Shown: piece by piece, positions 6,167 to 24,379 of the stretch
Layout: every line of letters starts with the position of its first letter
How positions within the stretch are numbered: position 1 is the first letter of the stretch
Origin: Candidatus Niyogibacteria bacterium CG10_big_fil_rev_8_21_14_0_10_46_36
GTDB lineage: Bacteria; Patescibacteriota; Minisyncoccia; 1-14-0-10-42-19
DNA: 64,000 nt
Direction: 5' to 3'
NCBI GenBank assembly: GCA_002772995.1
Contig: PFCO01000001.1
Coordinates: 128,244-192,243, forward strand
Made by a program: the position numbers and the translations under genes
The notes under the pieces: generated by a model
The model's input: only the letters and a program-made list of their open reading frames with translations
What the model was told of the DNA's origin: nothing
Databases searched by the model: none

Positions 6167-6195
6167 TTGCGCTAATTGCACATCTATTGTAAAAT
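6167..6195 (+). promoter_or_regulatory. Candidate sigma70-like promoter for gmhA.
   Basis: TTGCGC (6167-6172), a 17-nt spacer, then TAAAAT (6190-6195). It lies 23 nt upstream of the gmhA ATG at 6218, inside the divergent intergenic region. Confidence 0.3.
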
Positions 6196-6217
6196 ATGTA
6201 TGCTACTTTTATTGAAT

Positions 6218-8254: not shown

Positions 8255-9478
8255 CTATTTTATAAGCCGAGGCATGCCGGGCAACGGAACATAATACGAT
8301 CCCCGATATCCGTATATTTTTTTTACATACTCCATTATTTCATCGGCAAAATTCCACCCCAAAAGAATGATGCAGGACGGATCTTCTGCCATAGCTTTTT
8401 CGGGCGAAGTAATCGGTATATGCGTTCCTGCGGTATATAGTCCTTGCTTTAATGGATTCGCATCCGCGATAACAGCAATTACCGTATCATCAATGTCACA
8501 AAAATTCAATAATGTAGAACTGCGAGCAGACGCGCCGTACCCCACTACACGCTCTCCTTTTTTCTTCATATCAAAAAGTGTTTCCCTTATGGCATCCCGA
8601 TGGACACACGAGCGTTCACGAAACATCTCCCAAGCAGGATAATTATTTATTCCTTTTTCTGTTTCGCGGCTTCGATATACGCGCAACGCGTCAGTTTCAG
8701 CAACGCTCTTTTTTGCGGCATACACAACCAATGAGCCGCCGCTTATCGGACTTTCAAACACATCATATACAAACAAGCCGTTATCACGGAGTAGCCGCTC
8801 CATCGTGCGTAGCGTAAAGTAACACAAATGCTCATGATAAATAGAATCATAGTGCAATTCCTCAAGAATGGTGCCCGCATAATGGAATTCTATTGCGCAT
8901 ACAGCGTCTTCATTCATAATGGCCCGGACACCTCTCACAAAATCAACGGTATTCACCACATGCGGCAGAACATTCCGGGCAAACACAAAAGAAGCTGGGC
9001 CTTCTCTTTTTAGAAGTCCACGAACATATGTTTCACCGAAAAATTCCGCTTCCGTAGGAATGCCGTCCTTGTTTGCCTGCGCGACGATATTCTTGGCGGG
9101 ATCAACCCCCAGGACTGCGTGACCGTTCCTCTGAAACGGCAAAAGAAATGTTCCGTCATTGCTTGCAATCTCCAACACATATCCGGTGTGTGTTCCTGGT
9201 ACGCGCGATTTATATTCGCGATAAAATGTCTCCGCATGCTCGTGGGCACGTTTTGAGGTGCCCGTTACCCACACATATTCAGAAAATAATTCTTTTGGGT
9301 CCGCTGTGTAGCCAAGCTGAACAAGACTGCATGCCGTGCAATACACAAGAGCGAGCGGATACAGCACCTCCTCCTGATCTTTTGTCTTGCGAAGCGCGTT
9401 TGCATACGGCTGCTTCCCCAGATCAAAAAATTGCTTTAGTTCGGCTGAACCGCAAACCCTGCATGTGACATCGTTCAT
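8255..9478 (-). CDS. NDP-hexose C-methyltransferase family (N-terminal zinc-ribbon plus class I SAM methyltransferase plus C-methyltransferase C-terminal domain).
   Basis: The N-terminus CRVCGSAELKQFFDLGKQPYANAL is the characteristic CxxC...DLG.QP..N zinc-binding motif of the TylCIII/TcaB9-type sugar C-methyltransferases. The second Cys pair is CTAC. Length is 407 aa. Confidence 0.7.
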   Translation of the reverse strand: MNDVTCRVCGSAELKQFFDLGKQPYANALRKTKDQEEVLYPLALVYCTACSLVQLGYTADPKELFSEYVWVTGTSKRAHEHAETFYREYKSRVPGTHTGYVLEIASNDGTFLLPFQRNGHAVLGVDPAKNIVAQANKDGIPTEAEFFGETYVRGLLKREGPASFVFARNVLPHVVNTVDFVRGVRAIMNEDAVCAIEFHYAGTILEELHYDSIYHEHLCYFTLRTMERLLRDNGLFVYDVFESPISGGSLVVYAAKKSVAETDALRVYRSRETEKGINNYPAWEMFRERSCVHRDAIRETLFDMKKKGERVVGYGASARSSTLLNFCDIDDTVIAVIADANPLKQGLYTAGTHIPITSPEKAMAEDPSCIILLGWNFADEIMEYVKKIYGYRGSYYVPLPGMPRLIK

Positions 9479-9479
9479 A

Positions 9480-10847
9480 TTATCGCTTTTTTACTAATAA
9501 TTCTATTTCACGAGCGGCAACCGTCCCCGCGGAATATTCCGTTCCACGCGGCCATATGAACTGGGAAATAAATCTTTTTCTCTGTCGGTCATACGAATTT
9601 TTATGCTCCATAATATCTTCAATGACGCACAATAATTCGTCCTCATTCTTTGCGATAGGAGTTGCTTGGTGCGATAAAAGATTACGAAAATGCAAAGATG
9701 CATTTTGGGTTTCTTCGTATTGTTGCGGCATAAATGTAATCACGGGCTTGCCAAGCGCCATTGCGTCAAGCATAGCGCTTGTATTCACGCCAACAATAGC
9801 ATCCGCGAAAAAAACGCTGTCGGCAAACAAAGAAGCAGCGGCTTCTTTTTCCGGAAGTTGCGCGTCTTTCTGAAGCGTAACATTCGGCAAAGAAAGATGC
9901 TCGAATGGATGGATATTCGCTGGATGCGGGCGGATAATTATATGGGCATCCTGAAGCGCGCGTTTTTTTGATTGGCGAAGACGAGAAGCGATTTTTTTAA
10001 TGACCCATGATTCGTCACGCGCAATGTTTTTTGATGAACCAAGATACAATATGACCGGGCACTTGTTATTAAAACCATACCGTTGACAAAATGCCGCGCG
10101 GGATTCGGATGGCTTCCGCCGTACAAGCCATTGGTCAAAGAGTGGCGAGCCTGTAATACGTATACGCTCCTTGGGAACGGCGTGATGCGTTATTGCCTCC
10201 CGCATATGTTCTTCGTTCCACGCCAAAAGAAGGTCGGGAATAACGTGAATAAGCCCGCGCACCGTCAAATTATCCCAGGACATTACTGGAAGAACCGTGG
10301 GAATACCAAGCGCCCGCGCGGCTTTTAAAAACTCCGTATCGGCGCTTGAATTTCTCATGTTGCCCGGAGCGCCAATAACAACATCCGGCTTATAGTCCCT
10401 CAAAAATGCCGATATGCCGGCATCCGGCGGCACAAAATGTTCAGGAATGCGCAACAATGCGCCCGCCACACGCGTTTTAAAAAACGTATTGAGCAAAGAA
10501 TTTTTATTGCGTAAAAAATTCCTGATGTTTCTCGGTAACGCTTTTTCGATCCAATCTGTGCGCCAATGGTCTGCTTGCTCCGCGACCACAAGATATTTCC
10601 GATAACTTAGAAAGTCTCTCGCGGGAAATAAAATGCTCGTCCACCTGTCACTTCTGCTCGGAATGGTCGCGTAACTGCATAAAGGATTATTTTCCACATA
10701 GGCGGCCACAACATCAAACGATTCCGTTTTATTTTTTGCCGCATCAAAAAGAATATGCACGGCATGTCCCCGCGCGCATAACTCGTCTATAATACTCTTA
10801 TAGTAATGAAACAAAAGCGCCCACCGAACAACAAAGAGGACTTTCAT
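9480..10847 (-). CDS. GT-B-like surface carbohydrate biosynthesis protein, paralog 1 of 4 (possible TagF/CDP-alcohol phosphotransferase-like or KpsS-like family).
   Basis: It shares an S-W-D-N-L-T motif (MSWDNLTVRGL) and a C-terminal SD..h...S......a..KPVI motif with three other ORFs in the window. The start is moved from 10877 to the MKVLFVV ATG at 10847. Function is uncertain. Confidence 0.45.
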   Translation of the reverse strand: MKVLFVVRWALLFHYYKSIIDELCARGHAVHILFDAAKNKTESFDVVAAYVENNPLCSYATIPSRSDRWTSILFPARDFLSYRKYLVVAEQADHWRTDWIEKALPRNIRNFLRNKNSLLNTFFKTRVAGALLRIPEHFVPPDAGISAFLRDYKPDVVIGAPGNMRNSSADTEFLKAARALGIPTVLPVMSWDNLTVRGLIHVIPDLLLAWNEEHMREAITHHAVPKERIRITGSPLFDQWLVRRKPSESRAAFCQRYGFNNKCPVILYLGSSKNIARDESWVIKKIASRLRQSKKRALQDAHIIIRPHPANIHPFEHLSLPNVTLQKDAQLPEKEAAASLFADSVFFADAIVGVNTSAMLDAMALGKPVITFMPQQYEETQNASLHFRNLLSHQATPIAKNEDELLCVIEDIMEHKNSYDRQRKRFISQFIWPRGTEYSAGTVAAREIELLVKKR

Positions 10848-10851
10848 TGTT

Positions 10852-11847
10852 TTATTTTTCAGGATTGATAATGGCAAGACGCATCATAGCGAGCGTGGGA
10901 TTGCGTAAACCAAATACCGACCGCGTTTCGTGATGAAACTCATCAATACTATAAATGACAACATTATCATCCGGACGGTACGGGAAAAATAACGGATTAT
11001 TATGCGAAATGTCTCCATTTTTTTCACGTACGGCCAAAATATAATTAACGTTATAAAATACCGAATGCGCTTTCCCGGCACGATATATATGCTCAATATA
11101 TTTTCGGATATCGGACTGCCGCATCTCGCTAAACGACCAAAAATTAAAACTAGCGTCAAAAAATGAATCAGGAAGCATACCTGCCTGCTCCGGGGTCAAT
11201 AAATATACTGTACGCGTTGCATCAAAGTTTTTTATTTGGTGGGGGTAGACAATGTCCCAATCGGTGTATTTTATAAATTGGAAAGCGGCATGTCCCAACA
11301 TTTCCGGGAGGTCGACAATAACATATCTCTCTATTGGGAATTCTTTTATACAAAACAACGCAAATCCTCCCGCGCCCGCGCCAATCTCAAGCACAGAACG
11401 CATGCCATGAGGAAAGAGCTGTTGTTGCTTGCGCTTAAGGACTTTCATGTACCAAAAGTATCGCGCCTGCGACATTGCCGACTCAACATCAAACGACGCA
11501 AGAAAATCCTTATACTCCGGATACAGTCCCCTTCTCCACAAAAAATAAAGGGCTCGTGCGTGTTCGTGATAACCTTCTCCCAGCAACGAAAATTGCAATC
11601 GCGCCAACTTCGCGAATACTTTTAATGAAGCGAATCTCGCGTAATCCAAAAAAGAAATCTTGCCTTTTCTAAAACCAAACGAGTGCTTTTCTCGTCCTTC
11701 CACCCTCCTTTCCGCCAGCCGGACCCAATCTTTCTTTGTGGCGTCTATTTTATATCCTTCAATCTGATTGCCCCAAAAATTTGAAATGTTTTGGGATTTC
11801 GCCGATATAAGGAGAAATTCTTTTAGTTGCTCAAATCTATTATCCAT
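10852..11847 (-). CDS. Class I SAM-dependent methyltransferase (putative sugar O-methyltransferase).
   Basis: VLEIGAGAGGFALFCIKEFPIERYVIVDLPEM carries motif I (E/DxGxGxG) followed by an acidic residue at the end of beta-2. Confidence 0.55.
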   Translation of the reverse strand: MDNRFEQLKEFLLISAKSQNISNFWGNQIEGYKIDATKKDWVRLAERRVEGREKHSFGFRKGKISFLDYARFASLKVFAKLARLQFSLLGEGYHEHARALYFLWRRGLYPEYKDFLASFDVESAMSQARYFWYMKVLKRKQQQLFPHGMRSVLEIGAGAGGFALFCIKEFPIERYVIVDLPEMLGHAAFQFIKYTDWDIVYPHQIKNFDATRTVYLLTPEQAGMLPDSFFDASFNFWSFSEMRQSDIRKYIEHIYRAGKAHSVFYNVNYILAVREKNGDISHNNPLFFPYRPDDNVVIYSIDEFHHETRSVFGLRNPTLAMMRLAIINPEK

Positions 11848-12777: not shown

Positions 12778-12802
12778 AACACACGAGGTCTCACCTCGTG
12801 TG
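12778..12802 (-). terminator. Intrinsic terminator downstream of the 12812..13762 gene.
   Basis: A 9-bp perfect stem ACACGAGGT/ACCTCGTGT with loop CTC, followed on the minus strand by TTTTTATTT. Confidence 0.55.
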
Positions 12803-12811
12803 TCAAATTGG

Positions 12812-13762
12812 TTATGCGGCATGATTTTTTTCATACCACTTTATTGTCTTTGCTATGCCTTCTTTCAGCGATATTGCGGGCTTCCAGCCGTATACGGATA
12901 CGCGCGACGTATCAAGAATGCGCATCGCATCCCCTGTCGGTTTTTCGGTATCCCACACTATGGTGGGTTTCTCGGGCAGGCACGAAATAATAACCTCAAC
13001 AAGCTCCCGTATTGAAACACCTACCCCGCTTCCGATATTTACCGGCTTGGTGATACCATGTTCCGCGACAAAAAGCATGCCGCGCGCAACATCATCCGCA
13101 TAAATAAAATCACGGACAGCGGAACCATCGCCCCATACAACAAAGGGGCCTTCGCCCGACATCGCGCGCGCGATCAAAGACGGTATTACCATGGCTGATT
13201 CGGGGTCAAAGGTGTCATGCGGCCCGTATACATTCGCGGGGCGCACTATTGATATTGCGTTCCACCCGTATTCTTTCCCATAGGCTTCTGCCTGTAATTC
13301 CCCCATGCGCTTTGCCCAGCCCGCAAACTTGTCGTGTTCTGACGGAAATGTATGCCATACGCTATCTTCCTGCATTACTGCAGATGGTGCGTATACGCCC
13401 ACCGTGCTCGTATACAGAAATCCGGACACGCCTTTAAGCCGCGCCGCTTCCATAAGATTCGTATTGAATTGAATATGCGATACAAACACGCGTGCGGGGT
13501 GCTCCTTCATAAACAACGGTGAGCCTTTTACGCAAAGAAGATTAAACACATAATCCATTTCTGCGCATACTTTCAGGCACGCTTCAAACGAACGAAGGTC
13601 CGTTTGAACGAATGCGGCATCAGAATGCGCGCGTGACGGATCATCAAGAGAAGCCACCGTAACATTCGCGCCTTTTTCTATCAGCATCCGCACAAGCGGT
13701 GTGCCGATAAGACCGGTACCGCCCGCAACTAATACGTTCTTGCCCGTAAAATCAAATTTCAT
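12812..13762 (-). CDS. NAD(P)-dependent epimerase/reductase (GDP-fucose synthase/UDP-glucuronate decarboxylase-like extended SDR).
   Basis: NVLVAGGTGLIGTPLVRMLIEKGANV together with NVYGPHDTFDPESAMVIPSLIARA and a YxxxK-type catalytic region. Confidence 0.7.
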   Translation of the reverse strand: MKFDFTGKNVLVAGGTGLIGTPLVRMLIEKGANVTVASLDDPSRAHSDAAFVQTDLRSFEACLKVCAEMDYVFNLLCVKGSPLFMKEHPARVFVSHIQFNTNLMEAARLKGVSGFLYTSTVGVYAPSAVMQEDSVWHTFPSEHDKFAGWAKRMGELQAEAYGKEYGWNAISIVRPANVYGPHDTFDPESAMVIPSLIARAMSGEGPFVVWGDGSAVRDFIYADDVARGMLFVAEHGITKPVNIGSGVGVSIRELVEVIISCLPEKPTIVWDTEKPTGDAMRILDTSRVSVYGWKPAISLKEGIAKTIKWYEKNHAA

Positions 13763-14601
13763 CGTCCTCTCCCCGGGCTTCGAAATATCTTTCCCAGACG
13801 GTCCTTTTCATTATGATCGTCAAAAAGCGGGAATACGCGAGGTCTTCGTAATGCAATGCGTCTTCGCTGTGCATTCTTGCCCTCTACAAAGTCAACACCC
13901 GGCGGAAGATATGTGATAAGCATCAAGGGCCTGTCTCTGTCGGAAATATTCGGGTACGAGCCGTGAACGGTGTTTCCGTGCAATATAAAGATAGAGCCCC
14001 GTTTCAAGCATACGAGCGTTTCCTCGTAATGTTCGGGGATCTGTACTTTATTTCCGACTGCTGCGCGCTCACGGAATGTCGGAGTCGGCTCCGCTTCAAG
14101 AAGCGGCTCGACATGCGAACCCGGATATACATACAATGCCCCGTTCTCTTTGTCCTGGTCGGTTAACGCGATACCAACGGTAATGTACTGCCCCCAACGA
14201 GCGCGAGGATACGTATTATCCTGATGCGGATTCCATGGTTGTTCCTGAAAAGAAGTCCCTGCCTTTTTGAAATTAAAGTGCGTATGCGTTACTTCTACCG
14301 GGGCGTCTGACAGCGTATCAACAACCGAAAGAATGCGTGGATCCTCCACCACGCCCATAATCCATTCTTCATACCAATGAAGATTCATAAGCGGAGAAAA
14401 ATTTTCATCCGCATACGATTCATATAGAGCGTTTATCGCATGGCATTCTCCTTTTGAGAACACCTGCTCTCTTGTGAGAAATCCTTTCTCTCGGTAAAAA
14501 CGAAGCTCGTCAATAGAAACAACTGTCCCGTGCTTTCGTGTATCCGGCATATAACCTCCTGTACTGATGTTAAAGAACATCACCAGTGTAGAAGAAAACA
14601 A
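13759..14601 (-). CDS. Phytanoyl-CoA dioxygenase (PhyH) family Fe(II)/2-oxoglutarate-dependent oxygenase.
   Basis: WNPHQDNTYP gives the HxD iron ligands, and ALYVYPGSH...TVHGSYPN gives the distal His and Arg/Ser region typical of PhyH-like enzymes. Length is 280 aa. Confidence 0.6.
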   Translation of the reverse strand: MFSSTLVMFFNISTGGYMPDTRKHGTVVSIDELRFYREKGFLTREQVFSKGECHAINALYESYADENFSPLMNLHWYEEWIMGVVEDPRILSVVDTLSDAPVEVTHTHFNFKKAGTSFQEQPWNPHQDNTYPRARWGQYITVGIALTDQDKENGALYVYPGSHVEPLLEAEPTPTFRERAAVGNKVQIPEHYEETLVCLKRGSIFILHGNTVHGSYPNISDRDRPLMLITYLPPGVDFVEGKNAQRRRIALRRPRVFPLFDDHNEKDRLGKIFRSPGRGR

Positions 14602-14610
14602 GGACTTGCG

Positions 14611-15276
14611 TCAATCAGCAAGAAAAGTCGACACTACGGGAAGTTCTTTTATATCTCCAAACGAAGCAACAATAGTGTCAGCCTCTAAAAGCGTTTCTTT
14701 GGGCAAAGTTGACGCAATAGCAATACAATACGCACCTGCTCTTTTTGCCGCCCGTATTCCGAACGGGGCGTTTTCTACGACAATGCATTCATGAGGAGCA
14801 ACACCGATAGCGCCCGCTCCTGCAAGATACGGGTCCGGCTCCGGCTTCCCGCGCTCATACATATCGCTTGTGATTATTGCTTTAAATTGCGACAAAAAAT
14901 CATTAGGCACCGACGACTCCAGTCGTTTCATCAGTCCCGCCGTTACAATACCCGTAGGAATTTGCTTTGTGGCGCAAAGCTTTATAAAATCCTCAACATG
15001 CGGATACAATAAGAACGAATGGTCATCCATATAGTAGCGCTCCTTTGCGTGCATGATGTCTTCCGCGCGCGTTTCAGGAATGCCGTTTTTGTCGCAAAAA
15101 AATACAGCTACATCAATTGGCCGCATGCCCTCCAGAGGAAAATATTCTTCTCCGGTTATCTGCCCACCCGCGTCACCGAATGCCTTTTGCCATGCACGCA
15201 AATTGTCTTCCATAGTGCGCGCAAGCACCCCGTCAAAATCAAAAAGGATTCCTTTGTATGGCGCACTGTTATTCAT
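14611..15276 (-). CDS. HAD-superfamily hydrolase (beta-phosphoglucomutase family).
   Basis: GILFDFDGVLARTMEDNLRAWQKAF (DxDGV). Length is 221 aa. Confidence 0.7.
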   Translation of the reverse strand: MNNSAPYKGILFDFDGVLARTMEDNLRAWQKAFGDAGGQITGEEYFPLEGMRPIDVAVFFCDKNGIPETRAEDIMHAKERYYMDDHSFLLYPHVEDFIKLCATKQIPTGIVTAGLMKRLESSVPNDFLSQFKAIITSDMYERGKPEPDPYLAGAGAIGVAPHECIVVENAPFGIRAAKRAGAYCIAIASTLPKETLLEADTIVASFGDIKELPVVSTFLAD

Positions 15277-15778
15277 TAAAAAATGCGAGAGTTGCCTTCA
15301 TCCACGGACCCAAATGCTTGTAATGCGCGGATGTCACTATCTTATCATCAACCACGGCGGGCTCATCAATATATGTAGCCCCGGCGTTTTCAATGTCATC
15401 CTTGATGCTATAGTATCCTGATATTTTTTTGCCTTTTACTATTTTCGCGGATATCAACAACTGCGCCGCGTGACAAATGCTTGCGATCACTTTCCCACGC
15501 CCATGAAATTCCGCAATAAAATCAATTACCTCTTTATCTTGACGCAAATACTCCATGCATTTTGCTCCTCCAGGCAATACTAAGAGGTCATAATCATCTG
15601 GATTGATACCTGCAATGTCGCGTGTAGGGACAATCTTTGTGCCTAATATCCCCTGTACTGTTTCATTGCCGCGGATGGCCACATCAACATTGAACCCCGC
15701 CTCCTGCAAACGATAATACGGATAGATGAATTCGTGGTCCTGAACATTCTTTCCTGTAATAATAAGAGCTTTTTTCAT
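15269..15778 (-). CDS. DJ-1/PfpI family protein (class I glutamine amidotransferase-like).
   Basis: LLVLPGGAKCMEYLRQDKEVIDFIAEFHGRGKVIASICHAAQLL carries the nucleophile elbow C-H. Confidence 0.7.
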   Translation of the reverse strand: MKKALIITGKNVQDHEFIYPYYRLQEAGFNVDVAIRGNETVQGILGTKIVPTRDIAGINPDDYDLLVLPGGAKCMEYLRQDKEVIDFIAEFHGRGKVIASICHAAQLLISAKIVKGKKISGYYSIKDDIENAGATYIDEPAVVDDKIVTSAHYKHLGPWMKATLAFFNE

Positions 15779-15784
15779 ATCGCG

Positions 15785-16540
15785 TTAATGTGTTTTTGAT
15801 ATCAATAATAATTCTATTTCTTTCGGTATATGATATTCTTTTATGTTTTGCAAATCTCCTCCCCACACAACATCCCCCGGCTTCATACTGTATTCCTTCT
15901 TCGTGTGAGCAATCTCTCCGGCCAATATCGTTACTGAGGCATTCTGCATATTTGGCGCATCTTTGGATAGCGCATCTGTATGTGCATAGATTTTCTTGCT
16001 GATAGAACAATCTCCCATTTGAATATGCGGTGAATCAGCAAGAATCGGCAAAGTAAGCGAGTGCTCATTGGAAGAAGTAAAAGACTCCTTCCCCTCGTAT
16101 CCCTTTCCTTCCCTCCCATAACTGTCGCGCAAGCGCACAAGGTCTTTTTTATTTGTAGGCGTTTCTGTCTCCAGGACATAAATTCCTTTTGGGGAAAGAG
16201 CTTTTGTTGAATGAAAAACTCCTTTCTCAAGCAGAAGTCCCTTGCCGGCAGACATGTAAAGCGAGCGTTCTAGTGTTGAGCATTCAGCCTCCCCAGAAAG
16301 CACAGTAACCGATGTCTGTTTGTTCGGATGACAATGCATGGATGTTTGCGCCTGCGGTTGTATAAAAAGCATCCATATCGCGACAGCGTCGTTCTTGAAG
16401 AATAGATATTCATGCCCCCAGGGCTTTTGCACTAATACGCCTGAATAATCAAAAAAATCATCCTCAATGGATTCCGGATGAATACCTGCTTTTCGTAAGT
16501 GCTCTTTATCCGCCGCTGACGGGAAAATCCGTTCAATCAT
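15785..16540 (-). CDS. Cupin-domain protein, type II phosphomannose-isomerase-like.
   Basis: VQKPWGHEYLFFKNDAVAIWMLFIQPQAQTSMHCHPNKQTSVTVLSGEAE matches the PWGxE...H.H cupin motif seen in the ManC/PMI C-terminal domain. Length is 251 aa. Confidence 0.5.
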   Translation of the reverse strand: MIERIFPSAADKEHLRKAGIHPESIEDDFFDYSGVLVQKPWGHEYLFFKNDAVAIWMLFIQPQAQTSMHCHPNKQTSVTVLSGEAECSTLERSLYMSAGKGLLLEKGVFHSTKALSPKGIYVLETETPTNKKDLVRLRDSYGREGKGYEGKESFTSSNEHSLTLPILADSPHIQMGDCSISKKIYAHTDALSKDAPNMQNASVTILAGEIAHTKKEYSMKPGDVVWGGDLQNIKEYHIPKEIELLLISKTH

Positions 16541-16579: not shown

Positions 16580-16620
16580 AAAAACCGCACCGGATACCCG
16601 GTGCGGTTCTGTTTATTTTT
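16580..16620 (-). terminator. Bidirectional intrinsic terminator.
   Basis: Stem AACCGCACCGG / CCGGTGCGGTT with loop ATAC at 16586-16611. It is flanked by an A-run on one side and TTTATTTTTTT on the other. Confidence 0.6.
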
Positions 16621-17518
16621 TTACAATACGCTTTACATGCGCGTATATTTTTTCAGCAGTAGGAGGGAGATTATCGCATTGTTCCGCGAACCCCGCAGCG
16701 CGTTCCTCAAGCCCCAGCACATGCATTGTCTTTCCTGTCTGCTGCATAAGATCAAATGCAATATGCTTTGCTGTTCCGTTCTCAAAGTCACCGTCAATGA
16801 TAAGTCCGCCAAAGGACGAATCAGCAAGCGACTTCCGCATGACATCCGTTACCAAAAATGGCTTCAGCCACAGTAGATGAATGAGATTGCACCGTATCCT
16901 TCCTTCTTCCCAGAGCCGCTTTGCCGCTTTCATGGCTTCCAGCCGCGTTGACGATATTGCAAAAAGCGTGATGTCGGAATCGGGACGAATGATATTATGC
17001 ATCTCATAATCTATCCCAAAGCTTCTTCTATGTTCGCTTGCATACACCACCTCGTCATGCGCCGTAAAATAATCCCATACCTGCCGATACTCGTTCGGCG
17101 TCATGGGAGCGGCAACTGCGATACCAGGCATCCGCGCAAATAAGCTGTGATGACTACCTGACGCAACCGGCCCTATCGCGCCGTCCATCGCAATGGAACG
17201 CACGAACATGGGGCATGAATACCCCCACATGTCTTTTGCTTTCGCGGCGTAATTTATAACGCCGGGGCAATTGAACCACTGGAACCCCTGGTAGCGCACA
17301 ATATATATCGGCCGCCTGCCCGCGAGTGCGAGCCCTACAGCAATATACCCTCCGGAAACATCAGCCATTGATAATTCAATAAGACCTTGTTCTTCGGTGA
17401 GCTCGGGAACAGTTCCTCCAACCCAGCCGACTGCCGTAAGACATTGGCCGAGCGCTACGCCATGATGTTCAAGAAGATGCTTTCGCGTTATCTCTTTTAT
17501 CGTTTCGGCTACCGTCAT
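16613..17518 (-). CDS. TPP-dependent dehydrogenase E1 component, beta subunit (transketolase-like pyrimidine-binding plus C-terminal domains).
   Basis: GVALGQCLTAVGWVGGTVPELTEEQGLIELSMADVSGGYIAVGLALAGRRPIY is the E1-beta/transketolase central-domain signature. The start is moved to the MTVAETIKE ATG, giving an ATGA 4-nt overlap with the alpha subunit gene. Confidence 0.75.
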   Translation of the reverse strand: MTVAETIKEITRKHLLEHHGVALGQCLTAVGWVGGTVPELTEEQGLIELSMADVSGGYIAVGLALAGRRPIYIVRYQGFQWFNCPGVINYAAKAKDMWGYSCPMFVRSIAMDGAIGPVASGSHHSLFARMPGIAVAAPMTPNEYRQVWDYFTAHDEVVYASEHRRSFGIDYEMHNIIRPDSDITLFAISSTRLEAMKAAKRLWEEGRIRCNLIHLLWLKPFLVTDVMRKSLADSSFGGLIIDGDFENGTAKHIAFDLMQQTGKTMHVLGLEERAAGFAEQCDNLPPTAEKIYAHVKRIVKK

Positions 17519-18441
17519 GCCGGCACCTCCTTTATCGCCGTTTCCCACAGCAACTCCATATGGCGTTTCGTTTCTTTTTCTATCGCCCGAATCTCTTTGC
17601 CGTATCCCAGCGACTTCATCGTTTCTTTTGTCATTGCAAATCTATCCCATTCAGGCGGACCGTCGCATCCCGTACCATTATGCCACAGATGCCGGACCGT
17701 ATGGATATTTATGAACGCCGGAAGCTGCCCTTGCATCAAAAACGCATGCCACATAATAAGCCATGGGTCATCCGTTATTTCTATTGCGGGCATCCCGAAG
17801 GCACGGGCAACATCAACCATATTCCAGTTCCTGCGCACAGAAACTTCGGTAAGAATAGAAAGGCCGTTATCCATGCAAACGAACAGGACCGGCAATTGCT
17901 TGCGCGCGGCATATCCCATGGCGCCCAACACATAATCTTCTTCGGCGGAGGCGTCTCCCATAATACTCAGCACTTTACCCTCTCCTTTTTTTTGGAGACC
18001 GAGAGCAAAGCCAACGGATATCGGAACCTGTGTCCCCATATGGCCATCGTGACCAAACATACTAATCTTAGGCGAGTGGATGGAAGCCGAACCGCCCATG
18101 CCGCCCGCGCATCCGGTGGAACGCTGCAATAACTCATCTGCAAGCGCCCGCTCATCCCCGCCGTATGCAAGATAGACATCATGGCCCCGATGCTGTGCGA
18201 ATATATACGGTTCTTTGTATACCGCTGCAAGAGCAGATGTCACAGACTCCTGCCCCACAGAGAGATATATGGGCATCTTTTTCATACCGCCCGTATCAAA
18301 TGCGTATTTTACCTGAAGTTCAAAATACCGTATGCGGCACATATTCCGGAACACGGATAATATTTCATCCTTTTCTCCTATATGCACTTTCGCGCATGTT
18401 TCAATAAGCCGTTCCGTTATGCCACAGTCAGATGATCTCAT
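17515..18441 (-). CDS. TPP-dependent dehydrogenase E1 component, alpha subunit.
   Basis: GGMGGSASIHSPKISMFGHDGHMGTQVPISVGFALG...IMGDASAEEDYVLGAMGYAARKQLPVLFVCMDNG is the TPP-binding GDG-type motif. The start is moved to the MRSSDCG ATG (18441). Confidence 0.75.
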   Translation of the reverse strand: MRSSDCGITERLIETCAKVHIGEKDEILSVFRNMCRIRYFELQVKYAFDTGGMKKMPIYLSVGQESVTSALAAVYKEPYIFAQHRGHDVYLAYGGDERALADELLQRSTGCAGGMGGSASIHSPKISMFGHDGHMGTQVPISVGFALGLQKKGEGKVLSIMGDASAEEDYVLGAMGYAARKQLPVLFVCMDNGLSILTEVSVRRNWNMVDVARAFGMPAIEITDDPWLIMWHAFLMQGQLPAFINIHTVRHLWHNGTGCDGPPEWDRFAMTKETMKSLGYGKEIRAIEKETKRHMELLWETAIKEVPA

Positions 18442-19397
18442 AACGCACCTCCAAATTCCTCTTCGTACCATCGCATCGTCTTACGTATGCCTTCTTCCAA
18501 AGAAACTCGCGGCGTCCACAAAAAATCTTTTCTCGCCTTTGTGACATTGAGCACAAGAGATGTTTTAAGAGATGGCTTTGAAGCATCGTATCGTATTGTG
18601 ATGTTCTTCTCCGAAGCAGCGACTATTTTTTCTACAATCTCCCGTACGGCGTACGCTGTTCCGCTTCCGATATTAATTATCTCAAGCGGGCCGTGTTCTG
18701 TCCGTGTAAGTGTTTCTATAAAGCGGATGATGTCGTCTACATACACCAAGTCGCGCCGTTCACTTCCGTCACCCCACACAATAATCTCACCCCCCTCGGG
18801 AGCCTGCATCACCTTTGTGATGGTCGCCGCAAACATATGCGCACGGCTTATGTCGTATGTGTCATGCGGGCCGTAGATATTAGAATGACGAATGACGGTA
18901 AAGCGCGTGTTACCCATACGGGAATAAAATTCGCAGAGCTTCTCGCCGAATATTTTCATCCATGCGCCTCCAAAATAGACATCGTGGATTGAAGAATAAT
19001 CAACATCGCATTCCGTCACCGGATACCCTGTGTTCATTGGGTATAGCACCGTACAGCTCAAGAAAACGCAGTGCGGCACCTTTTGCACATGAACCGCTTC
19101 GCATATGAGCGTGTTCATGATGGCATTGTCCGTAACATGTATGAACGGACGCGAAACAATATCCGCGGCACCCGACGTTATCGCTGCTGCATGAATAACC
19201 ATGTCCATGCCACGCGTGATCTCAAAAATAGTGTTGCGATCCCGCAAGTCAGCTTGTATAAAGCGCTCCTTATGTTCAGGCTCCGAAGAAAAATATGTCC
19301 CATATACCTCCAGCTCATCGCGTACGGATAATACTTCAAAAATATTTCTTCCAATAAATCCCGACGCGCCTGTTACAAGAACCTTTTTTCTTTTCAT
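18438..19397 (-). CDS. NAD-dependent epimerase/dehydratase.
   Basis: KKVLVTGASGFIGRNIFEVL. The start is moved to the MKRKKVLV ATG (19397) with a 4-nt overlap. Confidence 0.75.
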   Translation of the reverse strand: MKRKKVLVTGASGFIGRNIFEVLSVRDELEVYGTYFSSEPEHKERFIQADLRDRNTIFEITRGMDMVIHAAAITSGAADIVSRPFIHVTDNAIMNTLICEAVHVQKVPHCVFLSCTVLYPMNTGYPVTECDVDYSSIHDVYFGGAWMKIFGEKLCEFYSRMGNTRFTVIRHSNIYGPHDTYDISRAHMFAATITKVMQAPEGGEIIVWGDGSERRDLVYVDDIIRFIETLTRTEHGPLEIINIGSGTAYAVREIVEKIVAASEKNITIRYDASKPSLKTSLVLNVTKARKDFLWTPRVSLEEGIRKTMRWYEEEFGGAL

Positions 19398-20197
19398 AGC
19401 ACCGACCTCCCTCTCCCGCCATCCAGACAAATACACTCGCCGGTTATAAAGTCAGCTGCATCGGACGCGAGAAACAGCACGAGACGCGCTACATCTTCAG
19501 GCGAACCCATGCGCGCAAGCGGCACTTTCTTTTTTTCTTGTTCTTCCATAATCGAACGCGCCTCTCCTATCCCGCATGAATGCCGATCCGCAAAGTCCCG
19601 AATATTGCGCTCCCAGGCATCACCTGTGAGCGTTCCGGGACATATTGCATTTACCAGAATGTTTTTATCGGCAAGTGCACGGGAAAGGTATTTGCTTACC
19701 GCAACCATCCCCGCCTTTGCCGCGACATAATGCGGATTATACATGCCTGGTTCTACCGCCGACATGGACGCTATATTGATAATGCGTCCCGTGTGAGACT
19801 GGCAGAGACAGGGTAGGACACCGCGCACCATACGAACCATACTCATACAATTTATTTCGTAGGAACGCGTCCAATCCTCATCCGAAAGTTCAAAAAAATT
19901 CCCGAACGGCGACGGATCACCCACATTATTCACCAGTATGTCTATCCTTTTATGATCTTTCTGTATGTTGCTAAGCGCCTTCTTCGCGCCCTCTGCATCA
20001 GCAAAATCAAACGCATACAAAAACACAGCTGCCGCCCCTTTGAGTAATAATTGCTTTTTTGTATTCTGTAAGCGCACTTCGTTGCGGCCGCAGACGATAA
20101 CATACGCATTTGCTTCTGCGAATGCTTCCGCAATCGCCTTGCCAACCCCTTGTGTTGCGCCCGTGACCAAAACAGTCTGTCCGGTGTATTTCCCCAT
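19394..20197 (-). CDS. Short-chain dehydrogenase/reductase (classical SDR).
   Basis: GQTVLVTGATQGVGKAIAEAFAEANAYVIVCGRN is a TGxxxGxG motif. NAICPG follows the YxxxK region. Confidence 0.8.
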   Translation of the reverse strand: MGKYTGQTVLVTGATQGVGKAIAEAFAEANAYVIVCGRNEVRLQNTKKQLLLKGAAAVFLYAFDFADAEGAKKALSNIQKDHKRIDILVNNVGDPSPFGNFFELSDEDWTRSYEINCMSMVRMVRGVLPCLCQSHTGRIINIASMSAVEPGMYNPHYVAAKAGMVAVSKYLSRALADKNILVNAICPGTLTGDAWERNIRDFADRHSCGIGEARSIMEEQEKKKVPLARMGSPEDVARLVLFLASDAADFITGECICLDGGRGRSVL

Positions 20198-20321: not shown

Positions 20322-20352
20322 AAAAAAACTCCATGCTATGGCATGGAGTTTT
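20322..20352 (-). terminator. Bidirectional intrinsic terminator.
   Basis: CTCCATGC-TATG-GCATGGAG forms an 8-bp stem at 20328-20347. It is flanked by AAAAAAA upstream and TTTT downstream. Confidence 0.6.
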
Positions 20353-20355
20353 GCA

Positions 20356-21303
20356 TCATACATTAGAGAATATCTCATTCCTTATGAATTGATATCCTTT
20401 GATGAGCTCCGAGATACCTTCCTGTAAGCATATCTCCGGATAGAATCCCGTGTGCTCAATTTTTGCGTTGCTTACAATATAGTTCCGCTTATCCTCGTCT
20501 TCATTGATATCCGATTCCGCCACATACAGATCAGAAACCTGTTTTTTTATCTCTTCGCACAATTCCCGCTTGCTCAGGTTGGCGTTCGATAATCCGACAT
20601 TGTACGGTTCGTCTTTCATATCATCAAAATGCGCAATGGCGTGCAGGAATGCACGCGCTATGTCGCGGACATGGACATAGTTGCGTTTAAAGCCGGCCTC
20701 GAAAAGAACGATATACCGGTCGCGCACCGCACGATACACAAAATCATTTACCAAGAGATCAAGCCGCATGCGCGGAGAAATGCCAAACGCCGTTGCAAAA
20801 CGGAATGTGATTGCATCACCGGATTCAAGTATCAAGCGTTCTGCTTCTACCTTTTGACGTCCATACAATGATACCGGGCGAAGCGGCGTTTCTTCAGTGC
20901 AATGTATGCCTTCTTCTCCTATGCCGTATCCGCTATTCGTTGTGGGAAACAATATACTCTGTCCCCTGCTGCGCAAGCGTAATATTGTTTGTATGGCATC
21001 TACATTGACTGCCTGGGACTCAAGCGGGAGTCTCTCGCATAACGGCGCGCCCACAAGCGCTGCGAGCGGAATTATAATATCCGCATTACGAATGTGCTTT
21101 GCTATAAGCTGTTCGTTACGGACATCGCCATATACGACATGTAATACTTTTTCGTGCATCACATCGAGTAATGATGCTTGCCCATAGAGACATACATCAA
21201 TGACTGTTACTTTATAGCCTTCTTTAAGCAGTGCCGGTACAAGGATGGAGCCGATATATCCTGCCCCGCCCGTTACCAGTACGTGCGTTTTATATGTCGA
21301 CAT
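20356..21303 (-). CDS. NAD-dependent epimerase/dehydratase (CapD/PseB-like nucleotide-sugar dehydratase candidate).
   Basis: HVLVTGGAGYIGSILVPALLKEGYKVTVID. Length is 315 aa. Confidence 0.7.
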   Translation of the reverse strand: MSTYKTHVLVTGGAGYIGSILVPALLKEGYKVTVIDVCLYGQASLLDVMHEKVLHVVYGDVRNEQLIAKHIRNADIIIPLAALVGAPLCERLPLESQAVNVDAIQTILRLRSRGQSILFPTTNSGYGIGEEGIHCTEETPLRPVSLYGRQKVEAERLILESGDAITFRFATAFGISPRMRLDLLVNDFVYRAVRDRYIVLFEAGFKRNYVHVRDIARAFLHAIAHFDDMKDEPYNVGLSNANLSKRELCEEIKKQVSDLYVAESDINEDEDKRNYIVSNAKIEHTGFYPEICLQEGISELIKGYQFIRNEIFSNV

Positions 21304-22468
21304 TGTTTACCACCTCGCATATACATTTGATATCGTTTTCGGTGAGCGACTCATTATTCGGCAAAAAGAAGCCGCGATTATACAGCCAATCAGAGACCGG
21401 GTGGCGAAACTCGCCGTAACGCTCAGTCCAGAACGGATGGCGTCCGAGGTTTCCCGCAGAAAATACGCGCGATTCAATGCCATGTCTCGTAAGCGCTTCA
21501 AGTATCCGCCTGCGATGCTCTCTGCTTTGAGCGACCGCGCAGAAATGAATACTGCAAGGTTCTTTTTCTTCTCCCCATGTCTGGCGTGACACAGTTTTAA
21601 GAGAACGAGCATACAGAACATGGTTACGATTACGAATAGCAAATATGTCTTTTGCCTTTTGTATCTGCCTGCGCCCCAGAAATGCCTGGATGTCTGTCGC
21701 GCGCACGTTGAAACCGGGCACAACAAACAAAAACGGGTCATAAAACGAATCTGGTCCGTATTTGGCAAACAACGCGAGCTGATCCTTCCGCATCAGGTCT
21801 TTCTGCCATCCGTGGCTCCGGAGCATCATCAACATATCGTGCAGCTCTTTGTTTTGCGTGCATATCATGCCGCCTTCTATAGTGGAAAGCTGATGGCCGA
21901 AATAAAACGAAAAGGAAGACATGCTTCCGCTTGAACCGACTGGCTCGCCGCGATATGTCGCGCCATACGACGCGCACGCGTCTTCCAATACGAGACAAAA
22001 TCCGTAGGCATCCTGCAACGCGCGGATAATATCCATATCGGCAGGAACACCGAGCGTATGCACAAGCACGACATAAAACGGACTATGCCGTTTTAGCGTA
22101 TCTTCCAGCTGATTATAATCGTACCCGAAATCTTCTTTGTTCGTGCCGCACATAAGCGACTGGAACCCTGCTTGCATAAATGGAGCTATGCTCGTCGGCC
22201 AACCGGTTGCGGGGACAATGACTTTTTTATTGCGTGTTCCTGCGTCTCCGGCAAGATACGCTTCGGCATACGCGGCAAGCAAATTTGCCGACGAGCCGGA
22301 ATTCACAAAAACCGCAAACCTGCTTCCCATGTGCCCTGCCCATTCGCGTTCAAACGCTTCTGTTTCTTCTCCTTTTGTAAGGCGAGGATACGTTCCGAGC
22401 CATTCCCGCAACGCATCTATGTCTTCAGTATTAATAACCTGTTCTGCTAACGGGTAGCGTGTTTTCAA
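21290..22468 (-). CDS. DegT/DnrJ/EryC1/StrS-family PLP-dependent nucleotide-sugar aminotransferase (or dehydratase).
   Basis: FEREWAGHMGSRFAVFVNSGSSANLLAAYA with a downstream GxxGxxxSFSFYFGHQLST region harbouring the fold-type I active site. Length is 392 aa. Confidence 0.8.
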   Translation of the reverse strand: MKTRYPLAEQVINTEDIDALREWLGTYPRLTKGEETEAFEREWAGHMGSRFAVFVNSGSSANLLAAYAEAYLAGDAGTRNKKVIVPATGWPTSIAPFMQAGFQSLMCGTNKEDFGYDYNQLEDTLKRHSPFYVVLVHTLGVPADMDIIRALQDAYGFCLVLEDACASYGATYRGEPVGSSGSMSSFSFYFGHQLSTIEGGMICTQNKELHDMLMMLRSHGWQKDLMRKDQLALFAKYGPDSFYDPFLFVVPGFNVRATDIQAFLGRRQIQKAKDIFAIRNRNHVLYARSLKTVSRQTWGEEKEPCSIHFCAVAQSREHRRRILEALTRHGIESRVFSAGNLGRHPFWTERYGEFRHPVSDWLYNRGFFLPNNESLTENDIKCICEVVNNVDI

Positions 22469-22545
22469 TGTTCGTCTCCTTACTGCCTATATCCACTCTG
22501 TTATAACAAAAAAATCCGCCGCGTCAAAGCGCAGCGGACCATTGT

Positions 22546-23505
22546 TTACTGTTTTTTTACCCATTCTCGTGCGTGGAAGAGCATATATTCGGCGGTTTCG
22601 GCAAGCATATAGCGGGGCTGCCAGCCGGTCAGTTTTTTAAAACGCGTTGTATCGGGAATTTGCAATGTCACATCAACCGGACGCAGTAAGTCAGAATCAA
22701 GGCGTGTTGGTATAGCACAAGAAGCATATGATATCAGAAGCTTCAAAAAATCACCCACCGGCAAGGAAGCATCTCCCCCAATATTATATACTTCTCCAGA
22801 ATGCCCCTTTGTCGTTGCAAGCCAATACGCCTCCATTGCGTCGCGCGGATCAAGAATAGTTCGTATGGAATCAAGATTTCCGTGGACTAATTCCCTCTTC
22901 TTGCCCTGCTCAATGAGTGCAATTTGCCGCGCAAACGATGTTGCAAATAAATCGCCTCTGCGCGGACTCATGTATGAAAACATCCGGCTGCGTATTATCT
23001 TCATTCCATCTACGCGCCAGTACAATTCTGCCAAAAAATCCTGCGTTATCTTTGACACTGCATAGGGACTTGCCGGGCGAAACGGACAAGACTCTTTTAT
23101 CGGTATGTCTGCTTGCGTAACACATCCATAGACTTCGGATGTACTAATATGGTGCGCGATTGTTTCCGGACAATGCTGCCGCAGCGCCTCAAACAAATTC
23201 GCTGTGCCCATGATATTGTTCTCAAGCACCGCAAGACGATTACTAAATGATGCCTTCACATCTGCATACGAGGCAAAATGAATAACAGCATCAGGTGTTA
23301 CGCCTTGGATCACGGAGGTAATTGCTCCAAAATCAAGCAGGTCGCATTCGTGCGTGGTAACGCCCTGAATGTCTCTTATTTCTGCCCCACTTCTCCATCG
23401 CGCAAGCCCGTGTACATCAATGCCCGGATGGTTTTCCAACACATATTCGGCAAAAGAGCCGCCTCCGGCTCCCCGAATGCCCGTTATTAGAATTGTTTTA
23501 AGCAA
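22546..23505 (-). CDS. GDP-sugar 4,6-dehydratase/4-reductase family (Gmd/Rmd-like extended SDR).
   Basis: ILITGIRGAGGGSFAEYVLENHPGIDVHGLARW...HISTSEVYG is collinear with the Gmd/Rmd N-terminus (ITGxxGQDGSYLAE..L...G.EVHG...STSE.YG). Confidence 0.6.
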   Translation of the reverse strand: MLKTILITGIRGAGGGSFAEYVLENHPGIDVHGLARWRSGAEIRDIQGVTTHECDLLDFGAITSVIQGVTPDAVIHFASYADVKASFSNRLAVLENNIMGTANLFEALRQHCPETIAHHISTSEVYGCVTQADIPIKESCPFRPASPYAVSKITQDFLAELYWRVDGMKIIRSRMFSYMSPRRGDLFATSFARQIALIEQGKKRELVHGNLDSIRTILDPRDAMEAYWLATTKGHSGEVYNIGGDASLPVGDFLKLLISYASCAIPTRLDSDLLRPVDVTLQIPDTTRFKKLTGWQPRYMLAETAEYMLFHAREWVKKQ

Positions 23506-24379
23506 CTATATTCTCCTTTCCCCCGAAGCCGCATGCTTTTGCGACGCGGTATCGTATATGCTTGTATTTGATTTTTAAAGGGTGTTCAAATGTCCTAAAC
23601 ATTTTATTCCGCAAACGAAAAAGTTTCAAGTCGCGCGTAAACGAAGGCCCATATTCTCTAATAGATTCATCAAGCAATGCATTCGCGTATGCATATAATT
23701 CCGCGTCCTGCGTGTTGTTCTTTTGTATTATCTGCATAACATCAATCGCGGTAGTCTCCCGCCGGGGGCGCTCTTTGGTAACATTGGCCAAAATATAACG
23801 AACATCATCCCAGCCGAACTTCTTTTTGCATACCAATAAAGATTCGTCAAAGCGGTCAACCACACCAACAAACGCGAAATGATCATGGATATTCTTTTTT
23901 GCTCGAGCCAAGGCGTCACCGGGCATGGGCAAAGTATCCCACCGGGTAATACCGCTTGCGACTTGACCCGCGAGAACACGCGTCTGGAAATTTGAGACAG
24001 ATACGCCCCCCTCCGCCACATATTGTCGAAGAGGCGTTGTTGCCATCTTTGTATGCGCGTAATGGCCGGAGCGAGCGCTCCCCCGCGCGTAATAATATTC
24101 GGAAAGAATACGATCGGCAGGATTACGTATAAAGGCTATGTATCCAAACGGCTGCGAAAAGTACTCATGAACGCCAAAAGGCATGTGCCCGCTTACACAC
24201 TGGATGCGCTGACGATGTTCTTCCGGCAATCCGGCAAGCGCCCGTATGTCTTTTTCTGTCCCGCCGTATGTCAAAAAAACTGCATCCTTAGGAAATTGCC
24301 GCGCAATAATGGCACGGAATGTCATCCCGCCCACTTTTGCGATATGAAGAAAGATGAGGTTTTGCATACCCCATATCAT
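23498..24379 (-). CDS. Sulfotransferase-family protein (carbohydrate sulfotransferase-like, Sulfotransfer_2/3 type).
   Basis: A 5'-PSB motif FLHIAKVGGMTF (cf. hIPKTGGT) and a 3'-PB motif FIRNPADRILSEYYY (cf. RDPxxRxxSxY) are both present and correctly ordered. Length is 293 aa. Confidence 0.55.
   Translation of the reverse strand: MIWGMQNLIFLHIAKVGGMTFRAIIARQFPKDAVFLTYGGTEKDIRALAGLPEEHRQRIQCVSGHMPFGVHEYFSQPFGYIAFIRNPADRILSEYYYARGSARSGHYAHTKMATTPLRQYVAEGGVSVSNFQTRVLAGQVASGITRWDTLPMPGDALARAKKNIHDHFAFVGVVDRFDESLLVCKKKFGWDDVRYILANVTKERPRRETTAIDVMQIIQKNNTQDAELYAYANALLDESIREYGPSFTRDLKLFRLRNKMFRTFEHPLKIKYKHIRYRVAKACGFGGKENIVA

Follow-up and report, generated by a model that had tools for sequence, protein, structure and literature searches.

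A stretch of 64,000 nucleotides (the window) from Candidatus Niyogibacteria bacterium CG10_big_fil_rev_8_21_14_0_10_46_36 was analysed, covering positions 128,244 to 192,243 of contig PFCO01000001.1 (assembly GCA_002772995.1). Niyogibacteria belong to the candidate phyla radiation (CPR; Parcubacteria). Within a glycan gene island, the minus strand of the window encodes a pair of proteins of the E1 type dependent on thiamine diphosphate (ThDP), E1 alpha (17515..18441, 308 residues) and E1 beta (16613..17518, 301 residues). This pair probably performs the pyruvate-dependent C-acyl branching of a GDP-4-keto-3-deoxy-heptose. Two unrelated ThDP folds, that of the E1 pair and that of the YerE-type carboligases, are interchangeable beside the same accessory genes (bicupin, DJ-1 and HAD) and the same kind of 3-dehydratase. 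No other observation argues more strongly for YerE-type chemistry in the E1 pair than this interchange.

The E1 alpha protein matches Pfam E1_dh with 71.6 bits (E 7e-20) and has a TPP_enzyme_C match, and E1 beta comprises a Pyr domain (Transket_pyr, 35.7 bits) and a transketolase C-terminal domain (Transketolase_C, 27.5 bits). The best solved-structure match is human pyruvate dehydrogenase (PDH) E1 alpha for the alpha subunit (E 4e-17), and Geobacillus E1 beta, in a HMMER alignment, for the beta subunit. Both proteins fall short of the curated cut-offs for PDH: E1 alpha scores 108 bits against TIGR03182 of NCBIfam (cut-off 394), and E1 beta 48 bits against PRK09212 (cut-off 321). E1 alpha contains the diphosphate/Mg motif GDA..(26)..DN (D163, N192) and the loop R250..H254-x-GTG-x-D260, and its ThDP-binding Asp and Asn are invariant in the family alignment (A1). 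In E1 beta, the position of the canonical ThDP-activating Glu is occupied by Asp (D53), as in 82 of 82 family members, whereas the controls AcoB and the E1 beta proteins of Thermus and Azospirillum have Glu in the same column. As judged from the aligned proteins, the Glu-to-Asp change is a signature of the family. The initial annotation had described a pair devoid of E2 and E3 components. In agreement with this, Pfam scans of 50 open reading frames (ORFs) across the 64 kb, with some smaller ORFs at 32-64 kb left out, found no E2 (2-oxoacid_dh/lipoyl) and no E3, and no E2, E3 or lipoyl partner was present in the related loci inspected.

The E1 pair is part of a large and distinct family and no isolated oddity. 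More than 2000 homologues of E1 alpha exist, with lengths of about 295-305 residues, and the 120 closest are 55-68 % identical to it. A scan of one genome per species yielded 80 loci. Their hosts include CPR phyla, Nanoarchaeota and Woesearchaeota (DPANN), many Nitrospira, Omnitrophota, Elusimicrobia, Planctomycetota, Chloroflexota, many Pelagibacteraceae (SAR11), SAR116, OM43-type betaproteobacteria, and Methylococcaceae. Among 72,556 plasmids, a translated search detected no member of the family, and the best identity there was 34 %. A neighbour-joining tree was built from 24 members of the family plus three outgroups (AcoA, Thermus E1 alpha, and an orphan E1 alpha of Azospirillum), and all 60 of its 60 bootstrap replicates recovered the E1 alpha family as monophyletic. 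Members share 37-75 % identity with one another and 22-32 % with the three outgroups. The family groups with the orphan E1 pair from the Azospirillum glycan locus and not with true AcoA.

The Azospirillum pair is found on plasmid AZO_p6 of Azospirillum lipoferum 4B (NC_016588.1 30000-62000; locus L093). This orphan pair, encoded by AZOLI_RS29255/29260, is related more remotely (32 % identity), and its E1 beta keeps the canonical Glu. It adjoins a Cj1427-like short-chain dehydrogenase/reductase (SDR; 57 % identical to the window protein at 20356..21303), a His-type DegT protein, an HddC-GmhB fusion, and a SIS protein, with glycosyltransferases, sulfotransferases, and MeOPN-like genes also nearby. 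The host is cultivable, and the link between E1 and heptose could be studied there. Some related loci carry a second E1_dh-like gene that is far more divergent (25-31 % identical). It lies at 16011..17167 in L005, with weak hits also in L007, L035, L037, L063, and L068. The product has 205 residues and is followed by an unassigned 168-residue gene product in L005, and has 318-346 residues in L007, L035, and L037. The gene may encode a further ThDP enzyme of the same glycan clusters.

The accessory cassette of the window lies downstream of E1 beta on the same strand. It starts with a bicupin (15785..16540, minus strand, 251 residues; Pfam Cupin_2) with the invariant site H69-x-H71...H110, which shows 100 % identity to a protein from a Candidatus Niyogibacteria genome. 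Its AlphaFold2 model (predicted local distance difference test score 90.9) shows a bicupin fold and matches generic bicupins only, and the structural neighbours include the 2-oxoacid-handling enzymes OxdC, BacB, and AerE. The second member is a DJ-1/PfpI protein (15269..15778, minus strand, 169 residues; Pfam DJ-1_PfpI 163.5 bits) with a Cys-His nucleophile elbow; its best solved structures are Arabidopsis DJ-1D and PH1704, and it is closest to glyoxalase-III-type proteins. The third is a HAD-IA hydrolase of the beta-phosphoglucomutase/BT2127 pyrophosphatase type (14611..15276, minus strand, 221 residues; Pfam HAD_2), which matches BT2127 in the PDB with E 5e-18 and the NCBIfam inorganic diphosphatase model with E 6e-35, under the cut-off. 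CPR genomes have the gene order E1 alpha, E1 beta, bicupin, DJ-1/PfpI, HAD, colinear with the window, and SAR11 has the order DJ-1, bicupin, E1 alpha, E1 beta. Two proteins (P0119 and P0107) combine the bicupin and E1 alpha in one chain, and in two others (P0149 and P0152) the bicupin is fused to TPP_enzyme_N, the N-terminal domain of acetolactate-synthase-type ThDP enzymes.

Two loci reached through the bicupin, L088 and L089, contain the same cassette with a single ThDP enzyme of 594-599 residues replacing the E1 pair. L088 has the order bicupin, ThDP enzyme, DJ-1, HAD, with identities to the window proteins of 52 % for the bicupin, 69 % for DJ-1, and 41 % for HAD. L089 has the order DJ-1, bicupin, ThDP enzyme, Ldh_2 (a 2-hydroxyacid dehydrogenase), SDR, HAD, and also carries a genuine RfbH 3-dehydrase. 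The ThDP enzyme of L088 is closest to JanthE (8rph; 446 bits, E 2e-132), with the next match at 275 bits. JanthE is a YerE-like carboligase that joins 2-oxoacids with ketones; the published description gives its natural substrates as unknown (PMC12188165). His-type 3-dehydratases adjoin both JanthE and the Azospirillum orphan E1 pair.

The JanthE gene itself (Janthinobacterium sp. HH01, AMWD01000002.1 4131597-4153429; L094) is located inside an erwiniose-type sugar cluster. This cluster comprises a nucleotidyltransferase, a 4,6-dehydratase, a His-type (RfbH-like) DegT protein, JanthE, an SDR, an acetaldehyde dehydrogenase, an HMGL/DmpG aldolase, and a family 2 glycosyltransferase (GT2). The acetaldehyde dehydrogenase and the aldolase match the donor-making pair ErwJ/ErwI. 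The cluster suggests that the natural role of JanthE is the branching of a 3,6-dideoxy-4-keto sugar with a 4-hydroxy-2-oxoacid.

The genes for the predicted sugar acceptor are found in the same cluster. A GmhA-like sedoheptulose-7-phosphate isomerase (6176..6802, plus strand; NCBIfam gmhA E 9e-23), an HddA-like heptose-7-phosphate kinase of the GHMP family (6805..7782, minus strand; NCBIfam HddA E 8e-42, with Pfam GHMP kinase domains), and a fusion of an HddC-like nucleotidyltransferase with a GmhB phosphatase (3913..5115, minus strand; Pfam NTP_transferase and PNK3P/HAD; NCBIfam GmhB E 1e-45, HddC E 7.5e-21) were identified. These assignments are best NCBIfam matches that fall below the equivalog cut-offs, and they suggest that the cluster encodes the full GDP-glycero-manno-heptose pathway. 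The SDR at 20356..21303 (minus strand) is of the C4 dehydrogenase type and matches PDB 6vo6 with E 5e-112, which we take to be Cj1427, the GDP-heptose C4-dehydrogenase that recycles NADH with 2-oxoglutarate. Next to it lies a ColD-type DegT protein (21290..22468, minus strand; PDB ColD/WbdK E 2.6e-45) of the pyridoxamine phosphate (PMP)-dependent 4-keto-sugar 3-dehydratase type. It is assigned as a 3-dehydratase because, in the motif FYFGHQLSTIEGG, His occupies the position of the pyridoxal phosphate-binding lysine of the aminotransferases. A further SDR (22546..23505, minus strand; Pfam GDP_Man_Dehyd 198.8 bits) resembles GDP-mannose/heptose 4,6-dehydratases and matches NCBIfam gmd with E 3e-33, under the cut-off. 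The function of Cj1427 has been described, and together with the C3-dehydratase of C. jejuni it yields GDP-4-keto-3-deoxy-heptose in vitro (PMC10680097).

The window proteins were compared with all ORFs of the related loci, and neighbour shares were taken from 50 complete loci, in which the sequence reaches 8 kb or more to either side. All 50 contain E1 beta. The HddA-like kinase occurs in 86 %, the Cj1427-like SDR in 76 % (with 43-63 % identity), the DegT-family protein in 72 %, the bicupin in 70 %, DJ-1/PfpI in 62 %, and the 4,6-dehydratase-like SDR in 40 %. The dehydratase His is found in 45 of 49 neighbouring DegT proteins when all related loci are pooled, and the E1 pair lies invariably in sugar-gene contexts. 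The co-occurrence of HddA, the Cj1427-like SDR, and His-type DegT therefore ties the pair to the 3-deoxy-4-keto GDP-heptose machinery. The acceptor of YerE in yersiniose synthesis is CDP-4-keto-3,6-dideoxyglucose, which has been proposed as the acceptor for erwiniose and caryophyllose too (PMC9306805), and GDP-4-keto-3-deoxy-heptose is its heptose counterpart.

From this gene content the following route can be proposed. GmhA, HddA, and the HddC-GmhB fusion would provide GDP-glycero-manno-heptose, the Cj1427-type C4 dehydrogenase or the 4,6-dehydratase-like SDR would introduce the 4-ketone, and the ColD-type enzyme would remove the 3-hydroxyl group. [quoted passage not shown] It would decarboxylate a 2-oxoacid, most likely pyruvate, and leave an acyl-carbanion equivalent on ThDP. 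Pyruvate is taken as the default donor, since branches of two carbons seem to be all that the E1-type enzymes of actinomycetes install (PMC12247030). Without a lipoyl-E2 acceptor, the carbanion would add to the C4 carbonyl of GDP-4-keto-3-deoxy-heptose or GDP-4-keto-3,6-dideoxy-heptose, and the product would be a 4-C-acyl tertiary alcohol. The two co-translated SDRs would then reduce the branch carbonyl in a YerF-like role. Tailoring of the product would fall to PhyH and the C-methyltransferase, joined in other genomes by B12-radical-SAM enzymes. The bicupin/DJ-1/HAD unit would either make a special 2-oxoacid donor or tailor or protect a reactive intermediate. As a speculation by analogy, the cassette could supply the donor through a phosphatase step, conversion of a 2-oxoaldehyde to a 2-hydroxyacid, and oxidation by Ldh_2 or the classical SDR. 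This role is attractive because the cassette genes hold the place of the donor-making genes in erwiniose-type clusters.

By published description, the closest known kind of enzyme would be the E1-type (alpha-KADH2) sugar-branching enzymes. Such pairs are responsible for sugar branching in the pathways to avilamycin, paulomycin, aldgamycin, and kibdelomycin (PMC4753412, PMC12247030). KbDH-alpha/beta of the kibdelomycin pathway has been characterised in vitro. AviB1/AviB2, Pau11/Pau12, the aldgamycin and kosinostatin pairs, and KbDH-alpha/beta share with the window pair the two-gene alpha and beta arrangement of a ThDP enzyme and the lack of E2 and E3. They also share the placement among nucleotide-sugar genes, here the Cj1427-like SDR, the 4,6-dehydratase-like SDR, and the ColD-type 3-dehydratase, and the predicted addition of a pyruvate-derived acyl anion to a keto-sugar, with the resulting tertiary alcohol then reduced or tailored (PMC4753412, PMC12247030). 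In contrast, they belong to antibiotic clusters and use dTDP-deoxyhexose acceptors, while the window family belongs to the surface-glycan clusters of CPR, DPANN, SAR11, and Nitrospira and is predicted to use a GDP-heptose derivative. Short subunits (about 300 residues), the invariant Asp for Glu, and the dedicated bicupin/DJ-1/HAD cassette also set the window family apart.

The YerE-like carboligases (YerE, ErwE, MMAR_2332, and JanthE), which act in the synthesis of yersiniose, erwiniose, and caryophyllose in lipopolysaccharide (LPS), have the same predicted reaction logic as the window pair. The acceptor is of the same kind, a 3-deoxy-4-keto sugar nucleotide from a His-type PMP 3-dehydratase (the window DegT is likewise His-type). 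The surface-glycan setting is also the same, and a JanthE-like enzyme fills the E1 place in an otherwise orthologous cassette. They differ in being single chains of ~600 residues with TPP_enzyme_N/M/C domains and a fold unrelated to that of the E1 alpha and beta pair. The window pair is thus a functional analogue of these enzymes and not a homologue. The JanthE locus also differs in having an aldolase/dehydrogenase donor module instead of the bicupin/DJ-1/HAD unit. Every class of the GDP-heptose toolkit of Campylobacter jejuni (GmhA/HddA/GmhB/HddC, Cj1427, 4,6-dehydratase, C3-dehydratase, and C4-reductases) has a homologue in the window. However, the C. jejuni toolkit has no ThDP enzyme and gives unbranched products, whereas in the window the carboligase is predicted to capture the 4-keto-3-deoxy intermediate.

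These comparisons bear on two proposals of the initial annotation. The first was that the orphan E1 pair branches a nucleotide-activated keto-sugar, with AviB1/AviB2 as the model. The literature on AviB1/AviB2, Pau11/12, and KbDH-alpha/beta (PMC4753412, PMC12247030), the 3-deoxy-4-keto neighbours, and the YerE/JanthE swap all favour this, but the scaffold appears from the genes to be a GDP-heptose and not a deoxyhexose. The second, that a branched sugar would be unusual in a surface glycan, holds in part only, since yersiniose, erwiniose, and caryophyllose are known there; it is the E1-type enzyme that is unusual in that setting. A 2025 review places E1-type branching mainly in antibiotic pathways and YerE-like enzymes in LPS (PMC12247030).

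A wider and more tentative proposal is that a widespread ThDP system builds C-acyl-branched heptoses of at least nine carbons on the surfaces of CPR, DPANN, SAR11, SAR116, OM43, and Nitrospira by means of the Asp-for-Glu E1 carboligase. The bicupin/DJ-1/HAD module would then supply a non-pyruvate 2-oxoacid or process the adduct, and would serve two unrelated ThDP folds. We hold this proposal with less than even confidence.

Several points weigh against the branching of a GDP-heptose at C4 by the E1 pair. The invariant Asp in place of the cofactor-activating Glu and a shifted position of the catalytic beta-His in the Geobacillus alignment make the E1 beta active site, as read from its sequence, atypical, and activity of the enzyme is assumed. 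Co-occurrence cannot separate C4 of the nucleotide sugar from another carbonyl. The logic of the cassette is incomplete, since Nitrospira-type loci lack the bicupin and DJ-1 and keep E1 alpha/beta with sugar genes, and since a bicupin/DJ-1 pair exists with no ThDP enzyme nearby (L087). A strong hairpin also lies between the E1 pair and the bicupin unit in the window.

The isolated bicupin/DJ-1 pair of L087 (ENA ERZ25039605, contig_49772) is 36 % and 61 % identical to the window proteins. It has no ThDP enzyme within 10 kb, and a PPDK-like protein and a methyltransferase adjoin it. The bicupin and DJ-1 may be a functional pair of their own.

Such a pair would fit a different view, in which the E1 pair, bicupin, DJ-1, and HAD form a small-molecule module. 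Starting from a metabolite that is phosphorylated or carries a 2-oxo group, they would produce an aldehyde, acyloin, or hydroxy-acid, which is later O- or N-linked to the glycan, and the ThDP enzyme would never meet a nucleotide sugar. In the cassette, the HAD is indeed of phosphatase type, the DJ-1 resembles glyoxalase III, and the metal bicupin is structurally near the 2-oxoacid enzymes OxdC, BacB, and AerE. The 2-hydroxyacid dehydrogenase Ldh_2 is added to it in L089, and the TagF-like transferases of the window could attach a phospho-linked substituent. However, the enzyme that stands in for the pair in the parallel cassette is a member of the YerE/JanthE group, which is known for keto-sugar branching. 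The link to the 3-dehydratase is tight and repeated, and a 3-deoxy-4-keto sugar has no other obvious consumer. The Nitrospira loci, which retain the E1 genes and sugar genes without bicupin and DJ-1, also speak against this view, which is considered unlikely.

The ThDP enzyme could also act on a sugar at a carbonyl other than C4, either at a C3 ketone, as in aldgarose and the kibdelomycin sugars, or at a heptose side-chain aldehyde, which would extend the chain (e.g., 7 + 2 carbons). The actinomycete E1-type enzymes branch at C3 or C4 (PMC12247030). The extra SDRs, an RmlC/FdtA-related cupin (7788..8237), and the B12-radical-SAM genes in 58 % of the loci could alter other positions. In contrast, the commonest partners, the C4 dehydrogenase and the 3-dehydratase, give a 4-ketone without a 3-hydroxyl group, so that C4 is the sole carbonyl, and the pathways to yersiniose and erwiniose show exactly the same situation. 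Attack at another carbonyl is considered improbable.

A further reading, which is hardly credible, takes the pair for a normal catabolic E1 from a pyruvate or acetoin dehydrogenase complex that lies by chance in a glycan island, or for a dead relic. In its favour, homologues are auto-annotated as 'acetoin:DCPIP oxidoreductase alpha' or 'pyruvate dehydrogenase E1 alpha', and the Glu-to-Asp change could mean lost activity. However, E2, E3, lipoyl, and aco genes were not found among the ORFs scanned in the 64 kb, the scores are far under the equivalog cut-offs, and the genes keep to sugar contexts. Bacterial and archaeal members also share 37-75 % identity and dozens of invariant residues, the ThDP motif among them, a pattern that speaks for strong selection to keep the enzyme active. 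The control loci differ accordingly, the acetoin operon (L090) containing AcoXABC and a lipoate ligase, and the Thermus operon (L092) a lipoyl protein. PDH and acetoin E1 proteins (PdhAB, AcoAB) share a homologous fold and the ThDP-binding motif with the window pair. The window pair differs from them in its low alpha identity (22-32 % to the three outgroups), its scores under the curated cut-offs, Asp instead of Glu, the lack of E2/E3/lipoyl partners among the ORFs scanned, and its glycan context.

Other candidates were tried and rejected. A transketolase-like supply of sedoheptulose-7-phosphate, with the bicupin replacing GmhA, is contradicted by the presence of GmhA in the window, by an enzyme that is PDH-like and not transketolase-like, and by the occurrence of the cassette in a CDP-hexose (RfbH) locus without heptose genes. 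Decarboxylation of a NeuB-type ulosonic acid was rejected as NeuB occurs in only 2 of the 50 complete loci. A supposed E1 pair in the O-antigen region of Coxiella burnetii (CBU0692/0693) was unconfirmed in the literature and was dropped. A literature search for E1 genes in O-antigen clusters gave nothing relevant, and no report linking GDP-heptose to ThDP branching was found in the literature searched.

The E1 genes are the last two of a four-gene unit on the minus strand, which opens with a classical FabG-like SDR (19394..20197, 267 residues; Pfam adh_short 169 bits, adh_short_C2 180 bits). This protein is a candidate ketoreductase with a YerF-like role or a candidate 2-hydroxyacid dehydrogenase. 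The second gene encodes an extended, GDP-fucose synthase-like SDR (18438..19397, 319 residues; Pfam Epimerase 138.7 bits; NCBIfam GDP-L-fucose synthase E 1e-39, under the cut-off), which may reduce either the sugar or the carbonyl of the branch. A homologous pair of adh_short and SDR genes is found upstream of E1 alpha in L002, L011, and L041. The coordinates given for these four genes by the initial annotation agree with the ORF list and with the public gene calls of an identical metagenome contig (L001), and its picture of a tightly overlapped E1/SDR unit was borne out. All three junctions have an ATGA four-base overlap, and a GGAGGT ribosome site lies 7-8 nt 5' of each overlapping ATG, so that E1 alpha is translationally coupled to the SDR at 18438..19397. 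Strong terminator-like hairpins at 20352..20325 and 16610..16581 enclose exactly the four genes. The latter (16581..16610, minus strand) has a 13-bp stem with eight G-C pairs and a T tract, and lies between the E1 beta stop and the bicupin start. Further hairpins on the minus strand (22540..22513 and 12804..12778) bound the adjacent gene units. The four strong hairpins fall exactly in intergenic gaps and partition the sugar genes, with two, four, and five genes per unit, a layout of separate units rather than of a single long operon.

The bicupin unit ends with two further genes. The PhyH-type Fe(II)/2-oxoglutarate oxygenase predicted earlier (13759..14601, minus strand) was confirmed by Pfam PhyH with 84.4 bits; it is a candidate tailoring hydroxylase, and it has homologues in 26 % of the 50 complete loci. 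The last gene encodes a second extended, GDP-fucose synthase-like SDR (12812..13762, minus strand; Pfam and NCBIfam), homologues of which are found near E1 alpha in 70 % of these loci. The C-methyltransferase at 8255..9478, also predicted earlier, has both Pfam Methyltransf_13 and Methyltransf_14. B12-binding radical-SAM proteins are absent from the window but occur in 29 of the 50 complete loci, and they adjoin the E1 pair in L002, L004, L006, L020, and L056. They are probably class B methylases, and may extend or methylate the branch.

The remainder of the island contains three TagF-like glycerophosphotransferase-family proteins (9480..10877, 33772..35145, and 44054..45475, minus strand) and two sulfotransferase-like proteins (23498..24379 and 30464..31300, minus strand). 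These genes point to a heavily decorated glycan, possibly phospho-linked and sulfated. A 371-residue protein (31290..32405, minus strand) among sulfotransferase and methyltransferase genes has only the barrel domain of pyruvate kinase, and could relate to pyruvate or phosphoenolpyruvate supply. A UDP-glucose/GDP-mannose dehydrogenase (39040..40773, plus strand) has an N-terminal CBS domain. An isoleucyl-tRNA-synthetase-like protein of 1160 residues (58769..62251, minus strand) has a histidine-phosphatase domain (His_Phos_1) inserted at residues 491-663.

C-acyl-branched sugars in surface glycans are known already, and are made there by another enzyme type. The novelty suggested by the sequences lies in the surface-glycan setting in mostly uncultured lineages, the predicted GDP-heptose acceptor, the Asp-for-Glu change, the accessory cassette, and the distance from the three E1 alpha outgroups. 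The branching hypothesis is directly testable because the published C. jejuni enzymes can make the acceptor. If it is true, E1-type carbon-carbon branching of sugars would extend beyond the actinomycete antibiotics, where the 2025 review places it, and would be common in the surface glycans of abundant and hard-to-cultivate microbes such as SAR11, Nitrospira, CPR, and DPANN. [quoted passage not shown]

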